Of a stretch of DNA of 50,967 nucleotides, positions 17,600-40,297 are shown one piece after another. How positions within the stretch are numbered: the first letter of the stretch is position 1; the number at the start of each line of letters is the position of its first letter. The DNA is from Parcubacteria group bacterium (GTDB taxonomy: Bacteria; Patescibacteriota; Minisyncoccia; Portnoybacterales; UBA2143), in contig NYYU01000041.1 of the NCBI GenBank assembly GCA_002685955.1, positions 1 to 50,967 of the forward strand. The letters run 5' to 3'. The position numbers and the translations under genes are program-made. Below the pieces are notes generated by a model. The model was not told the origin of the DNA, made no database searches, and saw nothing but the letters and a program-made list of their open reading frames with translations.

Positions 17600-18214
17600 A
17601 TGCGCCAAAAAATACTTAATCAAAAAACTAAATCCTTATTACAAGAAATATCTCCAAAAGAATTTCTTAGTGATTTTTATTTAGCCGGCGGTACTGCCCT
17701 AGCGTTACAATTAAACCACAGAAAATCAATCGACCTGGACTGGTTTAATCAAAAAGATTTTAATACTGAAAAACTTAAAAGAGAATTAAATCAACTCGGC
17801 AAGGTCATTATTGAATCAGAAGAAAAGAATAGTCTTAATTTAATTTTATCGGGGGTTAAATTGAGTTTTTTGAACTATCCATATAAATTACTTTTTCCTT
17901 TAATAGACTGGCAAAAAATTAAATTAGCTGATAAACGTGATATTGCTTGCATGAAATTAAACGCTATTTCTTCTCGTGGCAGTAAAAAGGATTTTATTGA
18001 TTTATTCTTTATCTTAAAAGAATATCCCTTAATTGAACTCTTGAAATTGTTTGATCAAAAATATCAGAATATTAAATATAATAAAATGCATATCTTTAAA
18101 AGTCTGACTTATTTTATTGAAGCGGATAACGAACCCCTACCAATTATGCTTAAAGATATAAATTGGGAAGAAATAAAAAAGCACCTCCAAGAGATAACCA
18201 AGAGAAGACTTTAA
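17600..18214 (+). CDS. AbiEii/AbiGii family nucleotidyltransferase (type IV TA-like)
   Basis: FYLAGGTALAL, HRKSIDLD, MKLNAISSRGSKKDFIDL. Confidence 0.9.
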   Translation: MRQKILNQKTKSLLQEISPKEFLSDFYLAGGTALALQLNHRKSIDLDWFNQKDFNTEKLKRELNQLGKVIIESEEKNSLNLILSGVKLSFLNYPYKLLFPLIDWQKIKLADKRDIACMKLNAISSRGSKKDFIDLFFILKEYPLIELLKLFDQKYQNIKYNKMHIFKSLTYFIEADNEPLPIMLKDINWEEIKKHLQEITKRRL

Positions 18215-30947: not shown

Positions 30948-32837
30948 ATGGCAAATAAATTTGAACAACCAAATCAAGAAACAAAAGAAGAACCTTTAAT
31001 TAAGGTTGTTAGTCCTGTAGGGGCTGAAGGGAGGAAAATAAGTGAAAAAACAATAGATAATGCCCAGAGGACAATTGATGAATTAAAATTTGAAAAAGAT
31101 ATAAAGAAAAAACAAAAAGAAGGAGTTTTACTCTCTAAAGAAGAAACAGCTAAATTAAGAGAATTAGAAAAAGAAGCAGAAAAACATGAGGATTTAGAAA
31201 AAAAGAAAGAATTAATTTTAGACGATGTTAGAAAAGAGTATGCTAAAATAGATTTAAACGCAGAAAAATACATTAAAGAAAATAAAGGAAAACTTAAGAA
31301 TGACTTTGAAGGCTATGAAGAAGCGAAATCAGCTTATTTAGAAGCATTGAAAAATCAACGGGTGAAAATGTATGAAAAAGCACTTAAAGAAGTGAAAGGA
31401 TTATCTCTTCCAGAATCAAAGAAAGAAGAAAAAAATAAAAAAATGAAAGAAAAAATGGAAGAGATTGTTAAAGAGACGATTATCAAAGAAGCCAATAAAT
31501 TGTATGATCAAAAAATGGATTTGAAATTAGAAGCTAAGGGAGAATTAGGAAAATTAGAAAAAATAAAGAATTTTACTGGCAAGATAGTTGAAAAATATAG
31601 GAGAATGCCTTTATATAAAAAGCTTTTAATTTCTGGTGGGTTAATAGCTGGCGGAATAGCAGCTGGCGCTGCTGGAGGAGCTACTGCAGCTGCTTTAGCT
31701 ACTGGGATGGTAACTGGTAGGTGGGCTCAAAGAGCTTTAGGTGGTGCAGCTACAGCAGTTGGCTTAGAAGCGTTAATTAAAAGGAGTCAAGAGAAAAAAG
31801 AAGGTAAAGAAGTATTAGCTGAGTTGGCCAATGAGTTACAAAAAAGCATTAAAGATAATGATAAAAAATTAGATAAAAAATTATTTGAATTAGAAGGAAG
31901 TAAGAAAGGACAAAAAACCCGACGATATATTATAGCTGGCGCAGCAGGAACATTAGTTGGTTCTGGCTTAGTTGGTAAAGCATTAAACGGTGTAGTTGGA
32001 GGTATTTGGGGTGGTGAAGGAGCAGAAAAAGTAACTGAAAAAGTAGTTGAACAAGTGCAAACAGAAGGATTTACTGAAACAGCTGGAAAAGGTGATTCAG
32101 TATGGAAAATGGCAGAAGATCAATTAGAAAAATATTATGGAGGAAAGTTTTCTGGATTAGATAAAGCCACTCAAACTCATCTTATTGACGCAGTCAAAGA
32201 TAAAGTTGCTGAAAATTCTGAAAAATTTGGTTTAGAAGATGTTGATAAATTAAAAGTTGGTCAGAAAGTTGATTTTTCAAGTATTTTTGAAGATTCAGCG
32301 CAAATGGATGAAATGTCGAAAGAAGCAAGCAGTTTAGTAGATAGCGAAAAAACAAATATTTTAAATAATAATAATAAGATTGAAGAATGGATGAGTGAAC
32401 ATCCTAAAGAAGAATTAACTTCTGAAAAAGTTGATGAGATTTTATCAGGAAAAACAGAAATTTCAGATACAGAAGTTGACGTAGCTGCAGAAGAAAGAAT
32501 TGCTTCTGAAATGAGCAACCAAGCAAATATTGAAATACAAATAGATGAAGCTGAAAATAAATTAGTTGAATCACTTGGATTTACTCCAGATGAATATAGT
32601 GCTATTGAATCTGTAAAAGTAGATTATTTATTAGAGCAATTACCTTCAAAATTTGAGGCATGGGAAATGTGGCATAATACGCCAACAAATATAGATTTGC
32701 CTCATGATGGAATTTATGGTTTTGGCGAATTTGGCCGACATATTGAATTAGCAGAATATATTCGTTCTCTTAATCCTAATGAAGGCGCAAAACAAATGAC
32801 AATTAGTCAATTTATGAGAGTTGCAGCTAGTAAATAA
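30948..32837 (+). CDS. Large coiled-coil protein with Gly/Ala-rich hydrophobic segments and a LysM-like region; candidate secreted protein
   Basis: K/E-rich N-half; LISGGLIAGGIAAGAAGGATAAAL and IIAGAAGTLVGSGLVG; KGDSVWKMA...LKVGQKV. Confidence 0.6.
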   Translation: MANKFEQPNQETKEEPLIKVVSPVGAEGRKISEKTIDNAQRTIDELKFEKDIKKKQKEGVLLSKEETAKLRELEKEAEKHEDLEKKKELILDDVRKEYAKIDLNAEKYIKENKGKLKNDFEGYEEAKSAYLEALKNQRVKMYEKALKEVKGLSLPESKKEEKNKKMKEKMEEIVKETIIKEANKLYDQKMDLKLEAKGELGKLEKIKNFTGKIVEKYRRMPLYKKLLISGGLIAGGIAAGAAGGATAAALATGMVTGRWAQRALGGAATAVGLEALIKRSQEKKEGKEVLAELANELQKSIKDNDKKLDKKLFELEGSKKGQKTRRYIIAGAAGTLVGSGLVGKALNGVVGGIWGGEGAEKVTEKVVEQVQTEGFTETAGKGDSVWKMAEDQLEKYYGGKFSGLDKATQTHLIDAVKDKVAENSEKFGLEDVDKLKVGQKVDFSSIFEDSAQMDEMSKEASSLVDSEKTNILNNNNKIEEWMSEHPKEELTSEKVDEILSGKTEISDTEVDVAAEERIASEMSNQANIEIQIDEAENKLVESLGFTPDEYSAIESVKVDYLLEQLPSKFEAWEMWHNTPTNIDLPHDGIYGFGEFGRHIELAEYIRSLNPNEGAKQMTISQFMRVAASK

Positions 32838-32881
32838 ATAATTTAATATTAATAATTAATAAAAAAATAACTAAAACAATT

Positions 32882-33202
32882 ATGAACAAGAAAAATATTC
32901 AACAAAACATTATTAAAGAACTTGGTTTAGAAGGTTTGCCAGAAGATAAACAAATAGAACTTTTAACTACCATGACTGAGTCAGTTTTAAAAAGAATAAC
33001 TATTAAAGTATTAGAACTATTATCTGAAGAAGATAAAAAAGAATTTGATCAAGTTCGAGAAACAAATGATCCAGATAAAATTAGTGAATTTTTAAAAGAT
33101 AAAATTAATAATTACGATGAAATAGTTGAAGACGTAATTAAAGAATTTAAGGAAGAGATGAAAAGCACAATGGCAAGTTTAGAAGAAGGTTTAGAAAAAT
33201 AA
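32882..33202 (+). CDS. Small acidic helical protein (DUF5663-like)
   Basis: IIKELGLEGLPEDKQ.ELL....E.V..RI.......LSEED..EF pattern. Confidence 0.65.
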   Translation: MNKKNIQQNIIKELGLEGLPEDKQIELLTTMTESVLKRITIKVLELLSEEDKKEFDQVRETNDPDKISEFLKDKINNYDEIVEDVIKEFKEEMKSTMASLEEGLEK

Positions 33203-33208
33203 TTTTTT

Positions 33209-33685
33209 ATGTCTGAAATAAGAGATAAATATCAGGAGCCACTTGAAGGCGATCCATCTGCTTTCAGCGAAAAAGTTGAATTAAAAAAGGAGGATTTTTC
33301 AAAAAAACCTTCTTTGCCAGATGAATCTGTTTCAAAAGAACAGGAAGTTTTAGAATTAGAAAAAAAATTGGCAGAGAAAAAGATGGAGTTAAATAAAGAA
33401 GTTGTGTCTAAAAAAAATGAAGAATCAGAGCCAGAAAAAGAAACTACCCCAAGACCAAATATACCGCCAGGCAAGGTTCAACAACGAGTTAAACAATTAA
33501 AAGATACCAGTAAAGAAAATCAAGTTAAAGCGCTTTGTGATCTAGCCTTTCAAAAGGGCCTTGATTTTGCTGTTGAAACAGCTAAAAATCTAGATAATGC
33601 TTATGTTTTAGATGAATTCCACGATACTCTAGTTGATGAATTGCGTGAAAAGCTAATTCAAAAAGGAGAGTTAAAAAAACTATAA
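33209..33685 (+). CDS. Hypothetical protein directly upstream of the coupling-protein-like ATPase
   Basis: Low-complexity N-half; structured C-terminus LAFQKGLDFAV..A..LDNAYVLDEFHD.L. Confidence 0.75.
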   Translation: MSEIRDKYQEPLEGDPSAFSEKVELKKEDFSKKPSLPDESVSKEQEVLELEKKLAEKKMELNKEVVSKKNEESEPEKETTPRPNIPPGKVQQRVKQLKDTSKENQVKALCDLAFQKGLDFAVETAKNLDNAYVLDEFHDTLVDELREKLIQKGELKKL

Positions 33686-33689
33686 TTTC

Positions 33690-36182
33690 GTGAGTATCAA
33701 TCAAATATTTTTATCTACAATTTCTCTCCTGATTCTGTCTATTATCATTATAGGCAGTCTCCTTTTTGTCCATCGCCTTAAAAACAAAGGGCAAACAAGA
33801 CGGGCTTTAAATATGAGCCTGTTTTTAATTACTCTGCCTAAAAAAACTAAAAATCAAGAACAATCGCCCAAGAACGAAAAAGAAATCATTTCAGTTATGG
33901 AACAGGTCTACAGTAGTTTAAGTAATATTCAGGCCAAGGAAAATACCTTTATTTACGGCCAGCCTCATTTAGTTTTTGAAATAGCTACCCCACAAATTGG
34001 TGAAGAAATTGCCTTTTATCTGGCCGTACCTAAAAATTACGAAGAAATTGTTGAAAAACAGATTCATGGGTTTTATCCTGAAGCTTCCATTGAACCAACT
34101 GAAGATTATAATATTTTCAATCCTCAAGGTGGAGTAGCTGGTAGTTATTTAAAATTAACTAAAAGCTATATTCTTCCTTTTAAAACATACCAACATTTAG
34201 AAACTGACCCACTTAACGAAATCACTAATACTTTAAGTAAATTAGAAGAAGATGGCGAAGGAGGAGCAGTTCAAATTATCTTCAGACCTACTAAAGTAAG
34301 GTGGCAAGCCCTAAGCCGAGGAATTGCCCAAGAAATGCAAAAAGGAAAAAGTTTTTCTCAAGCGAAATCAGCCAAAGGCAGTAATGAATTAGTTAAATTA
34401 ATTAAAGGATTTCAAGAAGATGTTAAATCTCCTAAAAAAGAAAAAACAACAGAAGAAGAAAAACCAACTATTACTTCTGGCCAAGAAGAAATTATCAAAG
34501 CCTTAGAAGGAAAATCAGCTAAAAAGGGCTTTGATGTAAATATCAAGTTATTGGTTTCAGCTAAAGACAAAGACAGGGCTGAGGAATTACTAAATCATCT
34601 AGAAGCAGCTTTTGTTCAATTTGAAGCGCCTGATCTAAATCAATTAAAACCAATCAAACTCAAAAATAGATCTTTAAAAAAACTAATCTATAATTTTTCT
34701 TTTCGGCTTTTTAATAAAAAACAAACAATGCTTTTAAATACTGAAGAATTAACTAGCGTTTTTCATTTTCCTACGGCTAGTACTGAAACGCCTAAAGTTA
34801 AATTCCTTAAATCAGAACAAGCGGCTCCACCTGCTAATATGCCTAAGCAAGGTCTCATTTTAGGAAAAAATGATTATCGTGGTGTAGAAACAGTTATTCG
34901 TATGCAAGAAGATGACAGGCGTCGTCATTTATATGTTATTGGACAAACTGGAGTAGGTAAATCTAATTTCTTAAAAAATATAATTCTTCAGGATATTAAA
35001 GAAGGCAAAGGAGTTTGCTTTATAGACCCTCATGGAAGTGATTTAGAATCAGTTATGGGTCAAATACCTAAGGAAAGAGCTGAAGATGTTATTTTAATAG
35101 ATCCAGCTGATATGGAAAGACCTTTAGGTTTAAACATGGTGGATTATAATGCAAAGTATCCAGAACAAAAAACTTTTGTTGTTAATGAATTAATGAGTAT
35201 TTTTGAAAAATTATACGATATGAAAGCATCAGGTGGGCCGGTATTTGAACAATATACCCGTAACGCTCTTTTATTACTAATGGATGATCCAAGCGAGAAA
35301 TTTACATTAATGGAAGTTCCTAAAGTTATGTCTGATAAAGAATTTCGTACTCGTTTGTTAGTAAAATGTAAGAATATAGTGGTTAAGGATTTTTGGGAAA
35401 AAGAAGCAGAAAAAACAGGTGGTGAATCTTCTTTACAAAATATGGTTCCATATATTACCTCTAAATTTAATGTATTTATTGCTAATGACTATATGAGACC
35501 AATAATAGGGCAATCAGAAAGTTCTATTGATTTTAGACAACTTATGGATGAACAAAAGATTCTTTTGGTTAATTTAAGTAAAGGCCGATTGGGAGATATT
35601 AATAGTCATTTATTAGGTTTAATTATTGTAGGTAAGTTATTAATGGCTGCTTTTTCAAGAGTTGATATTCCTGAGGAAGAGCGCAAGGATTTTTATCTAT
35701 ATATGGATGAGTTTCAAAACTTTTCAACTGATAGTATTGCTACAATTCTTTCTGAAGCAAGGAAGTATAAGCTTTGTTTAACTATGGCGCATCAATTTAT
35801 TGGACAATTGCCTGAAGAAATTAGTAAAGCTGTTTTTGGCAATGTTGGCTCAATGGTTGCCTTTAGAATTGGCGCTGAAGATGCAGAGTTTTTAGTCAAA
35901 CAATTTGAACCAATCTTTGACACTAATGATTTAATTAATATTGATAACTTTAATGCATATGTTAAACTAATGATTAACAACGAAACTTCTGAACCGTTTA
36001 ATCTTTCGGTCTATCCGCCAGCCAAAGATAATCCAGAAATCGCCCAAAAAATCAAAGAGCTTTCCAAAATTAAATATGGCAAGGATAAAAACGTAGTCGA
36101 AAAAGAAATTACTAATCGCTGGCAAGACACAGCTGTCACCGAAAGCCAGCCTCCATCAAACTCAGATATGGAAATTAGATAA
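33690..36182 (+). CDS. VirD4/TraD/TrwB-like type IV secretion coupling ATPase (HerA/FtsK superfamily)
   Basis: N-terminal TM; HLYVIGQTGVGKS (Walker A), IDPHG, YMDEFQNF (Walker B), LSEARKY, AHQ and GNVG motifs. Confidence 0.88.
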   Translation: MSINQIFLSTISLLILSIIIIGSLLFVHRLKNKGQTRRALNMSLFLITLPKKTKNQEQSPKNEKEIISVMEQVYSSLSNIQAKENTFIYGQPHLVFEIATPQIGEEIAFYLAVPKNYEEIVEKQIHGFYPEASIEPTEDYNIFNPQGGVAGSYLKLTKSYILPFKTYQHLETDPLNEITNTLSKLEEDGEGGAVQIIFRPTKVRWQALSRGIAQEMQKGKSFSQAKSAKGSNELVKLIKGFQEDVKSPKKEKTTEEEKPTITSGQEEIIKALEGKSAKKGFDVNIKLLVSAKDKDRAEELLNHLEAAFVQFEAPDLNQLKPIKLKNRSLKKLIYNFSFRLFNKKQTMLLNTEELTSVFHFPTASTETPKVKFLKSEQAAPPANMPKQGLILGKNDYRGVETVIRMQEDDRRRHLYVIGQTGVGKSNFLKNIILQDIKEGKGVCFIDPHGSDLESVMGQIPKERAEDVILIDPADMERPLGLNMVDYNAKYPEQKTFVVNELMSIFEKLYDMKASGGPVFEQYTRNALLLLMDDPSEKFTLMEVPKVMSDKEFRTRLLVKCKNIVVKDFWEKEAEKTGGESSLQNMVPYITSKFNVFIANDYMRPIIGQSESSIDFRQLMDEQKILLVNLSKGRLGDINSHLLGLIIVGKLLMAAFSRVDIPEEERKDFYLYMDEFQNFSTDSIATILSEARKYKLCLTMAHQFIGQLPEEISKAVFGNVGSMVAFRIGAEDAEFLVKQFEPIFDTNDLINIDNFNAYVKLMINNETSEPFNLSVYPPAKDNPEIAQKIKELSKIKYGKDKNVVEKEITNRWQDTAVTESQPPSNSDMEIR

Positions 36183-36205: not shown

Positions 36206-36799
36206 ATGAATAAATTAGAAATGGGTATTGAAAATATTCCTCAGGAATTAAATCAGGATAATTCTGAAAAACCAAACATTGAACAAGAGACAGAATCTGA
36301 TTTGGATGGAATGGCCGATCAAGAAAAAAGTATCTTAGAAAAATTTAGAGGCAAGGCTAAAAAAGTAGCTCTTGTTATGACTGTGGCCACCTCTCTGGCT
36401 GTTATAGGCTGCAAAGCGGAAAAAGCCCAAGACAATGTTTCTGGAAAAAATCAAGAGAGCGCGACGCATGAAGTCCAGGAATTAACCGAAGGAGAAAAAA
36501 ATGCGTTGGATCTAGTCAATGGGCTGAAACAAATACCCGAAAAATTACAAGAAGCTATAAAACAAGGAAAAGTAGAATCAGTTGGTCCTGCCCAAGATAA
36601 TGCTAGAGAGAGACAAGCCACTATGGATAGCATCCAAGCTTACTTTGACTCAGCAAAGAATAAAAGGGCTGCAATTGAAAACCTGGAATCAGCCTTGGGA
36701 AGCTTAGGTTTAGGCTCGCTTGATAAAGATGTTCAAAGAGGCTTGCTTAAAAAATTCGTTAATTACAAAAAAGCGCTTGACCGAACGGAAAAAAAATAA
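36206..36799 (+). CDS. Hypothetical protein with an acidic leader and an internal lipoprotein-type signal (cargo A)
   Basis: RGKAKKVALVMTVATSLAVIGC with lipobox Cys at residue 69. Confidence 0.75.
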   Translation: MNKLEMGIENIPQELNQDNSEKPNIEQETESDLDGMADQEKSILEKFRGKAKKVALVMTVATSLAVIGCKAEKAQDNVSGKNQESATHEVQELTEGEKNALDLVNGLKQIPEKLQEAIKQGKVESVGPAQDNARERQATMDSIQAYFDSAKNKRAAIENLESALGSLGLGSLDKDVQRGLLKKFVNYKKALDRTEKK

Positions 36800-36809
36800 A
36801 TTAATTAAT

Positions 36810-37076
36810 ATGAATAGTCTTGAAAAACTTAAACAAATATTAGAAGGTTCAAAGCTGTCGAGCCGAGACCAAAAAGCGCTTGTTGATCTTTTCTCGTCAG
36901 CAAAAGACGAAGAGCTGGAACCTGTGATTAAATTATTTTCTGAAAATCCGGAATGGATTGAAAAAATCAGCCATAACCACAAAATAAAACAAGAAGCATT
37001 GAAAAAGAGTGATGCAAATTTATGGCAGAAAATTATTCAAGAAGAAGAATCTCAACTCAGAGAATTAGAAAAATAA
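36810..37076 (+). CDS. 88-aa helical protein (partner A), paralogue of 37148..37420
   Basis: ATG at 36810 (MNSLEKL) removes the overlap and aligns without gaps to partner B. Confidence 0.75.
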   Translation: MNSLEKLKQILEGSKLSSRDQKALVDLFSSAKDEELEPVIKLFSENPEWIEKISHNHKIKQEALKKSDANLWQKIIQEEESQLRELEK

Positions 37077-37100
37077 CCCAAAACCAATGGCATAATTAAA

Positions 37101-37151
37101 ACCGTCTGCCTGAGGCAGACGGTCTTGTCTTTATTAATCCCTAAAAATCAG
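37101..37151. repeat. Direct repeat copy 1, containing a terminator-like hairpin
   Basis: accgtctgcc-tga-ggcagacggt then cttgtctttattaatccctaaaaatcag; near-identical copy at 38881-38932. Confidence 0.85.
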
Positions 37152-37420
37152 ATAGATTTATCAATTTCATCTAAAAATTCTTTTTCTTCTTTTAATATCT
37201 CGCTAAAATCAGCCTGTTTATTCCCCATAAAAATATTTTGTTTTTTCTTATAATTATTATAAACCCATGTTACCCATTTTTTATCTTCTTTGAACAATTC
37301 AAGAATTATAGAAAGATTATTCATAGGAGAATATCCAATAATATTATAAAGCTCATCCTGTTCTTGTTGTTTAAGATTAGATGATGATATTAATTTCCTT
37401 ATTTGTAATAATGTCTCCAT
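37148..37420 (-). CDS. 90-aa helical protein (partner B)
   Basis: 21/88 ungapped identities with partner A, including LFxE...W...NxKxKQ...IxxEExxxLxE. Confidence 0.75.
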   Translation of the reverse strand: METLLQIRKLISSSNLKQQEQDELYNIIGYSPMNNLSIILELFKEDKKWVTWVYNNYKKKQNIFMGNKQADFSEILKEEKEFLDEIDKSI

Positions 37421-37424
37421 GATA

Positions 37425-38045
37425 TTAAAAATCTGACGGTTTCATATATTCGTTCCCTTTTGTTATGGTCACTGAAGGATCTTGCTTTTTATTTTTATCC
37501 TCTATCTCATCATCTTCCACGCTATCTACAGGCGATCTTTTAATTTTACGCGCTTTTTCAACGCTTTCTCTCTCATCATCAGTTAATAAATCTAAAGGCA
37601 CATTATGTTCATTAATATGAGTTGGCACGAATCCTTCTAATTTAATTGAAGGATTATTGGAATCAAAATCAATTCCCATTTTTCCAGCAAGCTCTGATGC
37701 CCTTTTAATCCATCTTTCTCTTTCTTCTTGCTTTTGTTTCTTTTTCTTTAACACTTGTTCTATTCGCCTTTGCATACGCTCATCACCAGAATATTTATTC
37801 TGGTCAGCACCTTTTTGCTTCTCACTTATGGTATGTCTTTTTATCTCATCACCTGCTTCTGCTTTAGATAAACTAACAGTACCAGCAAGTAAAGTGCACA
37901 AGACCATTGTTTTAGCTACTAATTTTGACTTACCGCGCAATCCCTCTATAAATCCTTTTTCTTGAATTGCAAGCTTATCCAAATCAATATGTGGTTCTTT
38001 CTCGTTAGTATTATTAATATTTTCTGGAAACTTTTCTAAATTCAT
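37425..38045 (-). CDS. Hypothetical protein with an acidic leader and an internal Sec-type signal (cargo B)
   Basis: RGKSKLVAKTMVLCTLLAGTVSLSKAEA with AxA ending at residue 64; leader homologous to cargo A. Confidence 0.75.
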   Translation of the reverse strand: MNLEKFPENINNTNEKEPHIDLDKLAIQEKGFIEGLRGKSKLVAKTMVLCTLLAGTVSLSKAEAGDEIKRHTISEKQKGADQNKYSGDERMQRRIEQVLKKKKQKQEERERWIKRASELAGKMGIDFDSNNPSIKLEGFVPTHINEHNVPLDLLTDDERESVEKARKIKRSPVDSVEDDEIEDKNKKQDPSVTITKGNEYMKPSDF

Positions 38046-38182
38046 ATAGTTCTATTATATCATTTATGTTATTTTTATCAAGTATATATCTGTCGATTAT
38101 AACTTTTTTGTGATAAGATGATAGAGAAATTCGAAAATAATAAATTTATACAAAATTTGTTGTTAAAAGTAAACAATTTTTC

Positions 38183-38848
38183 ATGAAACCAACATATTTT
38201 CAATTTAATTGTAAAGAAATTGATAAATTAGACTTACATCAAGCCAATGCAGTTTTGAAACATAAACCAGATATAATAGTTCTTGAATATCCGAACAATA
38301 ATAAAACACCCGATCTACCATTTAATCAGTACTCACCTTTAAAAAAACCGAAGGGTATGATAAAAAGTCGTCTTAAAAAATTCCCAGATAAAGTTTTGAA
38401 AATTCATCCATGGGTTAAAGCAGATACTATAATGTGGAAGAATATTGCAAGTCTTTGGAAGAAAAATCATCAAATTTTAATTTACCCGGTAGATGCTCCA
38501 AGTGAGCTGACAAAAGAATGGATAGAAGTATGGAATCACACTTATCCCTGCGTAAAGAAAAACTGGGCTTGGTGGGTAAAAATATATTTACGCGAAAAGA
38601 TTATGGCTAAAAATATTCAATGGATACTAGATAATTATAAAAAAAAGAAAAAACCTAAAGTTTTGATATTTTTACAAAGTTTCCACTGGAATCATGTAAA
38701 ATTTCTTCTAGATAATCCGACTAAAAATGAAATCTGGAAATATTATTTTGGAAACTTTCCCGAAATAGATAAACAAAATATCAGAGGCAAAATAAGAAAT
38801 CTAAATAATACATTCTACAAATATTGGAATAAAATATCAGACTTCTAG
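38183..38848 (+). CDS. Hypothetical protein, possibly TraB/ChaN(TIKI)-like fold
   Basis: KPDIIVLE...REKIMAKNI...KVLIFLQSFH spacing resembles TraB/ChaN motifs; weak. Confidence 0.55.
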   Translation: MKPTYFQFNCKEIDKLDLHQANAVLKHKPDIIVLEYPNNNKTPDLPFNQYSPLKKPKGMIKSRLKKFPDKVLKIHPWVKADTIMWKNIASLWKKNHQILIYPVDAPSELTKEWIEVWNHTYPCVKKNWAWWVKIYLREKIMAKNIQWILDNYKKKKKPKVLIFLQSFHWNHVKFLLDNPTKNEIWKYYFGNFPEIDKQNIRGKIRNLNNTFYKYWNKISDF

Positions 38849-38880
38849 TTTTTACAACATCACACATCACTAGACATTTG

Positions 38881-38932
38881 ACCGTCTGCCTGGGACAGAT
38901 GGTTTTTGTCTTTATTAATCCCTAAAAATCAG
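38881..38932. repeat. Direct repeat copy 2
   Basis: accgtctgcctgggacagatggtttttgtctttattaatccctaaaaatcag. Confidence 0.85.
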
Positions 38933-38945
38933 CTACTATTTATAT

Positions 38946-39359
38946 ATGAAGCAATATAAAACTAAAGTTAGGATACTGACTGGCAAAAACTATCCTGATT
39001 TATATAAAAAGGCCTTTAGTCTTTATCGACAGATTAAACGAAAGACAAAACGTAAACCATACATAAGGTCATTCTATTTTAGAAAAGATAAAATATTCTT
39101 GGATTTATTCTGGCAACATCTTCATCAGAAAAACTGGCGGGATAGAAAAAGACGCATACGATATTATCCTTGCGCCATAGAGCTTATCAGATATTCGCGC
39201 CTTGACCCAGCATCAACAGATAATCCTAATAATCCATCAGAAATTTTGCATAAATTTAGCGGCATTGCGCCTGATGGAAGTGTTTTTTATGTTCAAATTA
39301 AAGAGAACAAACGGAATAACCAAAAATATTTAATGTCCGTATTCCCAGAGCAAAAATAA
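38946..39359 (+). CDS. Very basic hypothetical protein, putative RNase (RelE/BECR-like C-terminus)
   Basis: 137 aa, K/R-rich; ends ILHKFSG...FYVQIKE......YLMSVFP; fold assignment is inference. Confidence 0.65.
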   Translation: MKQYKTKVRILTGKNYPDLYKKAFSLYRQIKRKTKRKPYIRSFYFRKDKIFLDLFWQHLHQKNWRDRKRRIRYYPCAIELIRYSRLDPASTDNPNNPSEILHKFSGIAPDGSVFYVQIKENKRNNQKYLMSVFPEQK

Positions 39360-39491: not shown

Positions 39492-39941
39492 ATGCCTACA
39501 CTAGCCACTAATCGCCAAGCTAGATTTAATTACAAAATTCTGGAAACCTATGAAGCCGGCATAGTTTTAGCCGGCCATGAAGTTAAATCAGTTAAAAATG
39601 GCCATATTAGCTTAAAAGGTTCCTATGTTACTATTAAAAACCAAGAAGCTTGGCTAGTTAATGCCCAAATCTCTCCTTATCAACCCAAAAATATGCCTAA
39701 GGATTATGAACCAACTAATTCTAGAAAATTACTCCTTCATAAAGATGAAATCAAGGCTTTAGTTGGGAAAACCAAACAAAAAGGCTTGACTTTAGTGCCT
39801 TTGCGGGTCTATACTAAGCACAGTATTGTTAAGCTAGAATTTGGCTTAGGCCAAGGCAAAAGAAAAACAGATAAACGAGAAACAATTAAAAAAAGAGAAG
39901 CTGAGAAAAGAATTGGCCGAGCTTTAAGACAAAGGGGATGA
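39492..39941 (+). CDS. smpB: SsrA-binding protein
   Basis: NRQARFNY, EAGIVL.G.EVKS, RKLLLHK, LTLVPL and DKRETIK motifs. Confidence 0.97.
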   Translation: MPTLATNRQARFNYKILETYEAGIVLAGHEVKSVKNGHISLKGSYVTIKNQEAWLVNAQISPYQPKNMPKDYEPTNSRKLLLHKDEIKALVGKTKQKGLTLVPLRVYTKHSIVKLEFGLGQGKRKTDKRETIKKREAEKRIGRALRQRG

Positions 39942-40275
39942 CAGGTATCGATGAGAGTTCATTTTTTGATAAGCAAGTCGAGCTTAAAATCTCGTAAAAC
40001 TTTTAAACCTAACAACTGCTAAACCTAATTTAGCTTTTGCTACTGCTTAAGTTCGGTAGCCATCCAATCTCTTGATTTCTGATAGGGAGTCTCGGGTGTC
40101 AATTTTTCAGAATAGGCAATTAAATTATCTCGCTTTTTTGCCAAAACTTTAGAGATAAGGGTTAAGAATTTTTTGCTTGATTTTTCAGTTCTTAATTCCT
40201 CAAATTAAATCGAGCTAAGCTTGTAGAATTGTTAAACAATGACTTTTAGACGGGGGTTCGATCCCCCCATCTCCA
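39934..40275 (+). ncRNA. ssrA: tmRNA; tag (A)AKPNLAFATA*
   Basis: GGGGAUG/CAUCUCC-A acceptor stem with G3:U70, gggggttcgatccccc T-arm, tag ORF at 40018-40050; adjacent to smpB. Confidence 0.93.
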
Positions 40276-40297
40276 CTAATAAAATAAAAGGAAATCT

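Follow-up and report, generated by a model that had tools for sequence, protein, structure and literature searches.

Paired genes of Patescibacteria for a predicted exported protein with an extended Sec-type signal and a candidate cytosolic chaperone of that signal

Two convergent gene pairs at one locus

The window analysed here is the whole 50,967-nt stretch of contig NYYU01000041.1 (assembly GCA_002685955.1), from an ultra-small marine bacterium of the Parcubacteria group (order Portnoybacterales) whose genome (label G000; 919 kb, 58 contigs, 84% complete) is called the source genome below. Between positions 36206 and 38045 it carries two convergent two-gene units, each made of a gene for what we call a cargo protein and a gene for a small partner protein (Table 1). 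A preliminary description of this DNA, made from its letters, had reported two paralogous pairs in which each cargo gene is directly followed by a helical protein of ~89 amino acids (aa). Its coordinates and counts all hold, including the spacing between pair A and the VirD4/TraD-like ATPase gene upstream, and the paralogy is supported by the alignment of the cargo N-termini (E 3e-11), by that of the partners (E 5e-10) and by the recurrence of the pairing in other genomes. A genome-wide search found these four genes to be the sole copies of either type in the source genome, and none of the four proteins matches a Pfam or NCBIfam family above cut-off. On balance, we consider it probable that each pair encodes an exported protein with an extended Sec-type signal together with a cytosolic chaperone dedicated to that signal.

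The two cargo proteins resemble each other at their N-termini only, where BLASTP aligns 25 identical residues in 60. Within this region a block of 34 aa (18/34 identical) begins at D32 in cargo A and at D21 in cargo B, and past it the similarity ends, as had been noticed before. In cargo A, an acidic tail rich in N, Q and E (residues 1-31) is followed by a conserved amphipathic block that ends in the basic cluster RGKAKK (residues 32-53), by an uncharged hydrophobic segment that ends in the lipobox VIGC with C69 (residues 54-69) and by a charged, probably helical mature part (residues 70-197). Cargo B has the same arrangement, with a tail (residues 1-20), a leader block (21-46), RGKSKL as its pre-core sequence, a hydrophobic segment (47-64) that ends in KAEA/G at A64 (slashes mark candidate cleavage points) and a charged mature part. 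The hydrophobic core begins at residue 54 in cargo A and at residue 47 in cargo B, and the lipobox and the AxA site are both present in the translations, so that the earlier remark that an export signal lies buried far from the N-terminus stands.

Cargo A has two orthologues (79% and 72% identical) that keep the extension, the block and the Cys, the lipobox appearing in them as MGC or ISC. Word-index homologue searches with cargo A, either whole or as residues 18-75, recovered, apart from cargo A itself, just one or two close orthologues. A model of cargo A alone, predicted with AlphaFold2 (AF2), was poor (predicted local distance difference test, pLDDT, 45.9), and no fold search was based on it. 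When contigs of four DNA sequencing runs were compared with the locus, one substitution fell within cargo A and two in the intergenic spacer, which is too few to gauge selection. The substitution in cargo A, a T for C at position 36387 in contigs from two runs of seawater metagenomes, replaces Ala61, a residue of the hydrophobic core, with Val; the locus is otherwise near-identical in runs of three studies.

Partners A and B align without gaps over their length, with 21 of 88 residues identical. Partner A, whose true ATG lies at 36810 (the listed open reading frame (ORF) from a TTG, 36720-37076, is longer), is acidic and has no hydrophobic segment. AF2, given a 13-row alignment, predicts it as a five-helix bundle with high confidence (pLDDT 96; predicted template modelling score, pTM, 0.81), and Foldseek found no solved structure in the PDB that resembles this fold at E<=0.001 (best E 1.6). 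Thus, the helical nature first proposed for these proteins of 88 and 90 aa agrees with the model.

Table 1. Features of the two gene pairs and of their immediate context, in positions of the window
Feature	Position	Strand	Remarks
Cargo A	36206-36799	+	197 aa
Partner A	36810-37076	+	88 aa; ATG 10 nt past cargo A stop
Partner B	37148-37420	-	90 aa; 4 nt past cargo B stop; paralogue of partner A
Cargo B	37425-38045	-	206 aa
Leader block and signal core, cargo A residues 32-69	36299-36412	+	predicted to be held by partner A
Leader block and signal core, cargo B residues 21-64	37854-37985	-	alignment with cargo A and the leader subfamily
G+C-rich hairpin, 10-bp stem	37101-37123	strandless	between the convergent units; consensus match only
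Promoter-like site TTGATA-16-TATAAT	38054-38081	-	11/12 matches; TG ahead of the -10
VirD4/TraD-like membrane ATPase	33690-36182	+	830 aa; context gene; ends 23 nt before cargo A

Recurrence of the pairing and anatomy of the leaders

The partner belongs to a large family. A 13-row profile searched against 1.84 billion representative proteins matched 1218 clusters (50% identity) at E<=1e-3, of which 407 also reach E<=1e-10; the top 150 members are all 75-114 aa long, and members that bear any name are called 'hypothetical protein' of Parcubacteria or Minisyncoccota. The Protein Atlas returned unnamed Minisyncoccota and Falkowiibacteriota clusters only, with scores (0.83-0.85) below the meaningful level. 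Within the order, a profile search found the partner in 6 of 58 other genomes; it is present in 17 of 400 genomes of a phylum-wide sample (E<=1e-3), and among 400 other genomes of the class an 80-row profile detected it in 46 (E<=1e-5), which hold between one and three copies each, while a narrower 6-row alignment found two related loci only. None of 13 partners matched a Pfam family. In four genomes (loci L016, L064, L055 and L010) the partner domain forms the C-terminal half of a protein of 156-199 aa, the N-terminal half of which has no family match, and the sole Pfam match above cut-off among these fused forms is DUF2100, on the partner part of L016. Taken together, these searches describe the partners as a large, unnamed family of Patescibacteria that belongs to no described family. 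A relationship of the partner to the DUF5663 protein encoded nearby was considered and rejected (hhalign probability 1.9%).

The preliminary description had expected leader and partner genes to occur together in other genomes, and they do. We scored this in 38 non-redundant partner loci from other genomes with a strict rule, by which the first hydrophobic 11-mer of a cargo had to start at residue 36 or later, with hydrophilic sequence before it, at least two K or R in the ten residues ahead, an AxA or lipobox site after it and no later hydrophobic span. A cargo that passed this rule lay adjacent to the partner and on the same strand in 20 of the 38 loci, upstream of it in 11 and downstream in 9; gene order therefore varies, either way round. 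The background is low: 5 of 777 ORFs of at least 100 aa in the source genome pass the rule, two of them being cargo A and cargo B, as do 3 of 118 ORFs of these loci that do not adjoin the partner. Ten further loci, which had failed a threshold, an edge or a gap rule, were recognised on re-inspection, in two cases with longer flanks, and raised the count of loci with an N-extended cargo to about 30 of 38. These are L051 and L059 (cargo cut by the locus edge), L058 (overlapping start codons), L068 (a 325-nt gap), L072, L077, L011, L012, L018 and L010, whose fused partner comes after an N-extended protein of 459 aa. Clustering of the neighbours in 13 contexts revealed no further gene conserved beside the partner.

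Cargo proteins vary where partners do not. The partners are related to one another, and the mature parts of the cargos are unrelated by BLASTP save among three closely related loci, in agreement with the conserved partner and variable cargo described at the outset. The mature parts are small and charged, and probably helical; on further cargos Pfam gave no family above cut-off, and a weak SprT-like match (E 0.0062) was recorded on a cargo of genome G047. Cargo A, cargo B and cargos of four other genomes, each of a different taxonomic family, share a leader of the form '..PEKL..QEK..LEKFRGKAK' that runs into the core, although mature parts behind this leader range from ~110 to 470 aa. Partner and leader vary together: in BLASTP comparisons among the 38 loci, the partners closest to A and B are those beside leaders of the QEK..LEKFRGKAK type. 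The five best matches of partner A include all four partners from other genomes that stand beside leaders of this subfamily, and the five best of partner B are the same four and partner A. Judged by sequence, these matches show that leader and partner are co-inherited; this is not proof of contact, as kinship of whole modules can explain the matching similarities.

The anatomy of the leaders was compared in 22 cargo proteins, namely A, B and 20 from other genomes. An N-terminal extension with a median of 68.5 aa (range 35-155) precedes an uncharged segment with a median of 17.5 aa (range 11-22). Charge is net positive over the 12 residues just before this segment in 22/22 cargos and net negative over the distal N-terminal part in 20/22. 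The segment is followed by sites such as GEARA/D, SEAYA/Q, KAEA/Q or KAHA/G, or by a lipobox (VIGC, VAAC); a site of the AxA or lipobox type is present in 22/22, but it was a selection criterion and is not independent evidence. By an in-house heuristic, the features of Sec signals cleaved by signal peptidase I, that is, a basic n-region, a core of 11-22 aa and an AxA-type site, fit cargo B and most of its relatives; the usual N-terminal position and short n-region of Sec signals are not found, as the core comes after the long extension in all 22 proteins. The segments are short for membrane spans, and they resemble the h- and c-regions of Sec signals that are cleaved.

These extensions could in principle be annotation artefacts, with translation starting at an internal codon near the hydrophobic segment and producing ordinary signal peptides, an objection that the preliminary description itself had raised. 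In cargo A, an internal Met at residue 36 would indeed give a signal of 34 aa. In cargo B, however, no internal Met occurs ahead of residue 47. Moreover, with a random stop probability of 0.0675 per codon in the source genome, a run of 68 open codons would arise by chance with p ~0.009, and all 22 extensions are open. The acidic tails of cargo A and B can still be aligned by BLASTP, the regions upstream of the internal starts are conserved between A, B and the four other genomes, the orthologues of cargo A keep the extension, and residues 32-33, ahead of Met36, are among the contacts of the complex model presented below. A near-consensus promoter whose -10 ends 8 nt ahead of the cargo B ATG points the same way; it would yield a leaderless or nearly leaderless mRNA beginning at M1, but is a consensus match only, since the promoter scan found 9 sites in the region and 9.7 in shuffled sequence, no excess. 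We take these observations to indicate that the N-terminal extensions are translated, and an artefact of start-codon choice seems to us extremely improbable.

Predicted complex and competing readings

Partner A is predicted to bind the leader of cargo A. With full-length cargo A (an alignment of 4 rows) and partner A (one of 13 rows) as input, the complex scored a median of 0.71 in three runs (0.68, 0.71 and 0.73), whereas none of three controls exceeded 0.00; in a calibration set this mark is reached by 58 of 80 solved complexes and by 2 of 110 mismatched pairs. Between runs, at least 79% of contacts are shared, and the pLDDT of the partner does not fall below 81. The predicted interface joins residues 32-72 of cargo A, that is, the conserved block and the hydrophobic core, to residues 27-87 of the partner, and comprises cargo residues 32-33, 36, 39-40, 43-44, 47-51, 53-58, 60-62, 64-69 and 72, the best-supported contacts being those of residues 54-65. 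E79, invariant in the partner family, lies at this interface beside the basic cluster of the cargo, and the mature part of cargo A stays outside it. Thus, in the model, the partner holds the leader and not the mature cargo, as the preliminary description had supposed. As far as fold and family searches show, no similar complex has been solved.

We propose a mechanism in which the extension would begin with an acidic, disordered tail and continue as an amphipathic helix, and the partner would bind this helix together with the hydrophobic core. The partner would clasp and shield the signal in the cytoplasm, acting as a dedicated signal-peptide chaperone or holdase. The short and highly charged preprotein would thereby stay soluble, and its export would be timed or targeted. 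On release, the signal would engage Sec, and signal peptidase I (in cargo B) or lipid modification at C69 (in cargo A) would free or anchor a variable surface or secreted protein. Part of the machinery for these steps is encoded in the source genome: a signal peptidase I of the S26 peptidase type lies in the window itself (2167-2652, - strand), and Lgt (PF01790) was found elsewhere, while TatC (PF00902) was not found in the genome at its 84% completeness.

Several points weigh against this proposal. LspA (PF01252) was likewise not found in the source genome, and a match turned up in just 2 of 30 relatives within the order, which puts the processing of the cargo A lipobox in question. Eight of the 38 partner loci have no visible cargo-like neighbour: L015 lies at a contig end, L016 and L064 are fused, L008, L063 and L076 have no such neighbour, and L021 and L074 are doubtful. 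A leader hidden Markov model built from 8 seeds recovered its own subfamily and, weakly, locus L077; it finds one subfamily only, so a single leader family for all cargos is not supported. The case for cleavage comes from our in-house sequence heuristic, and that for binding is a model confidence, not a measurement; helical bundles of any kind may readily accept a hydrophobic helix in docking, although all three controls had a score of 0.00. Finally, a shielded Sec signal would block export unless it is released, and no release factor or trigger is known. As a separate observation, proteins with a lipobox persist in this group despite the rarity of LspA, which would mean either that its LspA is too divergent for the model or that lipoprotein signals are handled differently.

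If the hydrophobic segment were not cleaved, the cargos could be bitopic membrane proteins (N-terminus in, C-terminus out) held by a signal anchor, with the partner as a cytoplasmic adaptor or regulator, of an anti-sigma or sensor-like kind, on the juxtamembrane helix and tail. The single hydrophobic segment with positive charges on its N-terminal side suits such a topology, as does a partner that is cytosolic and conserved, and the part of the interface formed by residues 32-53 would remain cytoplasmic. However, uncharged segments of this length, with a minimum of 11 aa, would make short membrane spans, and the best predicted contacts, at residues 54-65, would lie hidden within the bilayer. 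No DNA-binding or sigma-like fold matched the partner, and small-x-small or lipobox sites are present, though such sites were selected for and are not independent. We therefore regard membrane anchoring of this kind as rather unlikely.

It is also tempting to think of toxin-immunity or toxin-antitoxin pairs, in which a small protein neutralises a harmful exported or membrane-active one, given that these are small adjacent gene pairs of patchy distribution (46/400 genomes of the class) whose larger proteins vary. Immunity proteins track the toxin domain, whereas here a conserved partner tracks the leader while the mature parts are unrelated, and the predicted contacts avoid the mature part. In addition, no toxin or immunity family reached its cut-off; Tli4_N on cargo B gave 15.6 bits against a Pfam cut-off of 26.5. 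Thus, a leader-binding chaperone fits better than an immunity protein, as first argued, and we find a toxin pair very improbable.

The preliminary description had gone further and suggested that the gene pairs may stand beside their secretion machine. By this account the partner would mask the Sec signal in the producing cell, the cargo would leave through the VirD4-like ATPase into a host cell, and the Sec, Lgt and Lsp machinery of the host would place it in the host envelope. The ATPase passes the Pfam cut-offs for T4SS-DNA_transf (30.7 bits vs 20.1) and TrwB_AAD_bind (26.2 vs 20.5), while FtsK_SpoIIIE stays below its cut-off (15.7 bits vs 24) and all NCBIfam matches lie far below theirs. 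It consists of an N-terminal membrane segment, a domain of ~350 aa with no assignment and then the ATPase, and it follows genes for a Gly/Ala-rich membrane protein (629 aa), a DUF5663 protein and a protein of 158 aa (30948-36182). Genome G047, of the same family, keeps this upstream trio, and there too (locus L041, contig C8, 8801-11858) the genes right behind the ATPase encode an N-extended protein and one with the partner domain. The former, of 459 aa, has an HExxH motif and is the cargo with the SprT-like match; the latter, of 187 aa, carries the partner domain as its C-terminal half and is followed by a very acidic protein of 346 aa.

Apart from this adjacency in two genera of one family, the complex model, in which the signal core is masked, agrees with such a nested signal, as does the retention of the lipobox Cys in the cargo A lineage, given that LspA was found neither in the source genome nor in 28 of 30 relatives. 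Precedents come from type VI and type III secretion systems (T6SS and T3SS), where chaperones cover the hydrophobic segments of injected effectors (PMC7773334, PMC6110835). Against the nested signal, 395 of 400 other genomes in the class encode the ATPase (E<=1e-20, mostly 50-73% identity), as against 46 of 400 for the partner, and the two are near each other in 1 of 13 other loci (flanks up to 10 kb, some contigs short), that of G047. In five other genomes of the order the ATPase has other followers, namely membrane proteins of ~115 aa and ~860 aa and a GtrA-like protein, or, in one of them, the GtrA-like protein alone; no other neighbour is conserved in the 13 contexts, and no recognised VirB or further type IV secretion part occurs among the flanking genes scanned. 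The ATPase thus has, by its distribution, the character of a near-universal core gene, unlike a mobile conjugation gene. Because it is nearly universal, co-occurrence is uninformative and cannot exclude a link either; the adjacency in the two related genomes is the sole specific support, and a functional link of the pairs to the ATPase, with the routing of cargo through it, is not supported. The producer's own Sec and signal peptidase explain a cleavable signal more simply. Delivery into a host has no direct support and is speculative, and we consider export into a host through the ATPase quite improbable. If it were true, the cargos would be contact-dependent effectors of an episymbiont bearing a signal addressed to the export machinery of another cell, which would explain why a lipobox is retained where LspA is mostly not detectable.

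Some features of the surroundings can be added. In the source genome the cargo-partner pairs sit where loci L078, L079, L081 and L082, from four other genomes of its family, have the membrane proteins and the GtrA-like protein. The hairpin between the two units is likely a terminator shared by both; the hairpin scan found one such structure against 1.0 expected in shuffled sequence, so that it counts as a consensus match only. Between pair B and smpB lie genes for two basic proteins of 221 and 137 aa that have no family match (38183-39359) and that are absent beside the ATPase in six other genomes of the order compared. The smpB gene itself (39492-39941), just downstream of the pairs, overlaps the start of the tmRNA gene (39934-40276; tag AKPNLAFATA). 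Far from the pairs, at 17600-18214, a nucleotidyltransferase toxin of the AbiEii type (PF08843, E 1.6e-13) is encoded amid housekeeping tRNA-synthetase genes.

Comparison with known systems and significance

Dedicated chaperones of signal peptides have been described for the Tat pathway, where redox enzyme maturation proteins (REMPs) such as TorD, DmsD and NapD are cytosolic and bind the N-terminal signal peptide of their substrate (PMC13673990). Like these REMPs, our partner is small, cytosolic in all likelihood and genetically linked to a particular substrate. The two differ in other respects. A twin arginine occurs in 1 of 9 pre-core sequences inspected (L011) and is absent from all 22 leaders compared, a search of the source genome gave no TatC, and the partner has no Pfam match, TorD and NapD included. 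In addition, the cargos have no recognised cofactor domain, and they carry a long acidic tail that Tat signals lack.

Extended signals of the Sec type are known as well. The glycoproteins of the accessory Sec system have a signal of ~90 aa and are served by the Asp chaperones. In autotransporters with an extended signal peptide region (ESPR), a conserved N-terminal extension precedes a Sec-type signal (PMC2805444, PMC7948813). The cargos share with both groups an N-terminal extension before a Sec-type signal; the extensions of the cargos are longer and acidic, their length varies, and each substrate has its own adjacent partner gene. No ESPR or KxYKxGKxW model matched cargo A or B (Pfam at E<=1, NCBIfam at E<=0.01). 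Patescibacteria, moreover, are not known to have an outer membrane.

Small cognate proteins that cover a hydrophobic helix have been found in injection systems. A T6SS Eag protein encoded beside its substrate covers the N-terminal hydrophobic helix by mimicking helix packing (PMC7773334), and T3SS chaperones shield hydrophobic segments of injected effectors (PMC6110835). The likeness to our pairs lies in the small cognate protein beside its substrate and, here by prediction, in the covering of a hydrophobic helix. Among the genes scanned there is no sign of a T6SS or T3SS. The partner differs from Eag and from class I T3SS chaperones in being modelled as an all-helical bundle of 88 aa, with no match to DUF1795 or to a chaperone family and none to a PDB fold at E<=0.001. 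Furthermore, the shielded segment resembles a cleavable Sec signal, not a membrane domain meant for a target cell.

Among the cytosolic factors of general export, SecB keeps Sec substrates export-competent and the M-domain of the signal recognition particle (SRP) recognises the hydrophobic core of the signal. Both are general, with one per cell, whereas here one partner gene accompanies each substrate gene, in ~12% of the sampled genomes, and neither sequence nor fold matches them. A resemblance to the WXG100 proteins of type VII secretion, which are helical hairpins encoded beside an FtsK/SpoIIIE ATPase, is not borne out, as the partner has five predicted helices and no WXG100 match. To our knowledge, no substrate-specific, gene-linked binder of Sec-type signals has been reported, and full-text literature searches, which covered main texts, turned up no published description of this module or of any such binder.

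Signal-peptide chaperones of the Tat pathway and segment-shielding chaperones of injection systems are thus already established, and a counterpart for Sec-type signals would be new. The partner itself offers a five-helix fold that is confidently modelled and has no solved relative. The cargos also suggest a sequence rule for exported proteins of this kind, namely an acidic tail, an amphipathic helix, a basic cluster, a short core and an AxA site, and we expect that proteins which follow it will be overlooked or shortened by standard signal predictors and start-codon callers. Finally, if the predicted binding is real, the dedicated chaperone that we favour would be part of a widespread module, with the 1218 clusters of its family, by which ultra-small, host-dependent bacteria would control the release of variable, small and charged surface or secreted proteins, the kind of proteins expected to mediate contact with the host.

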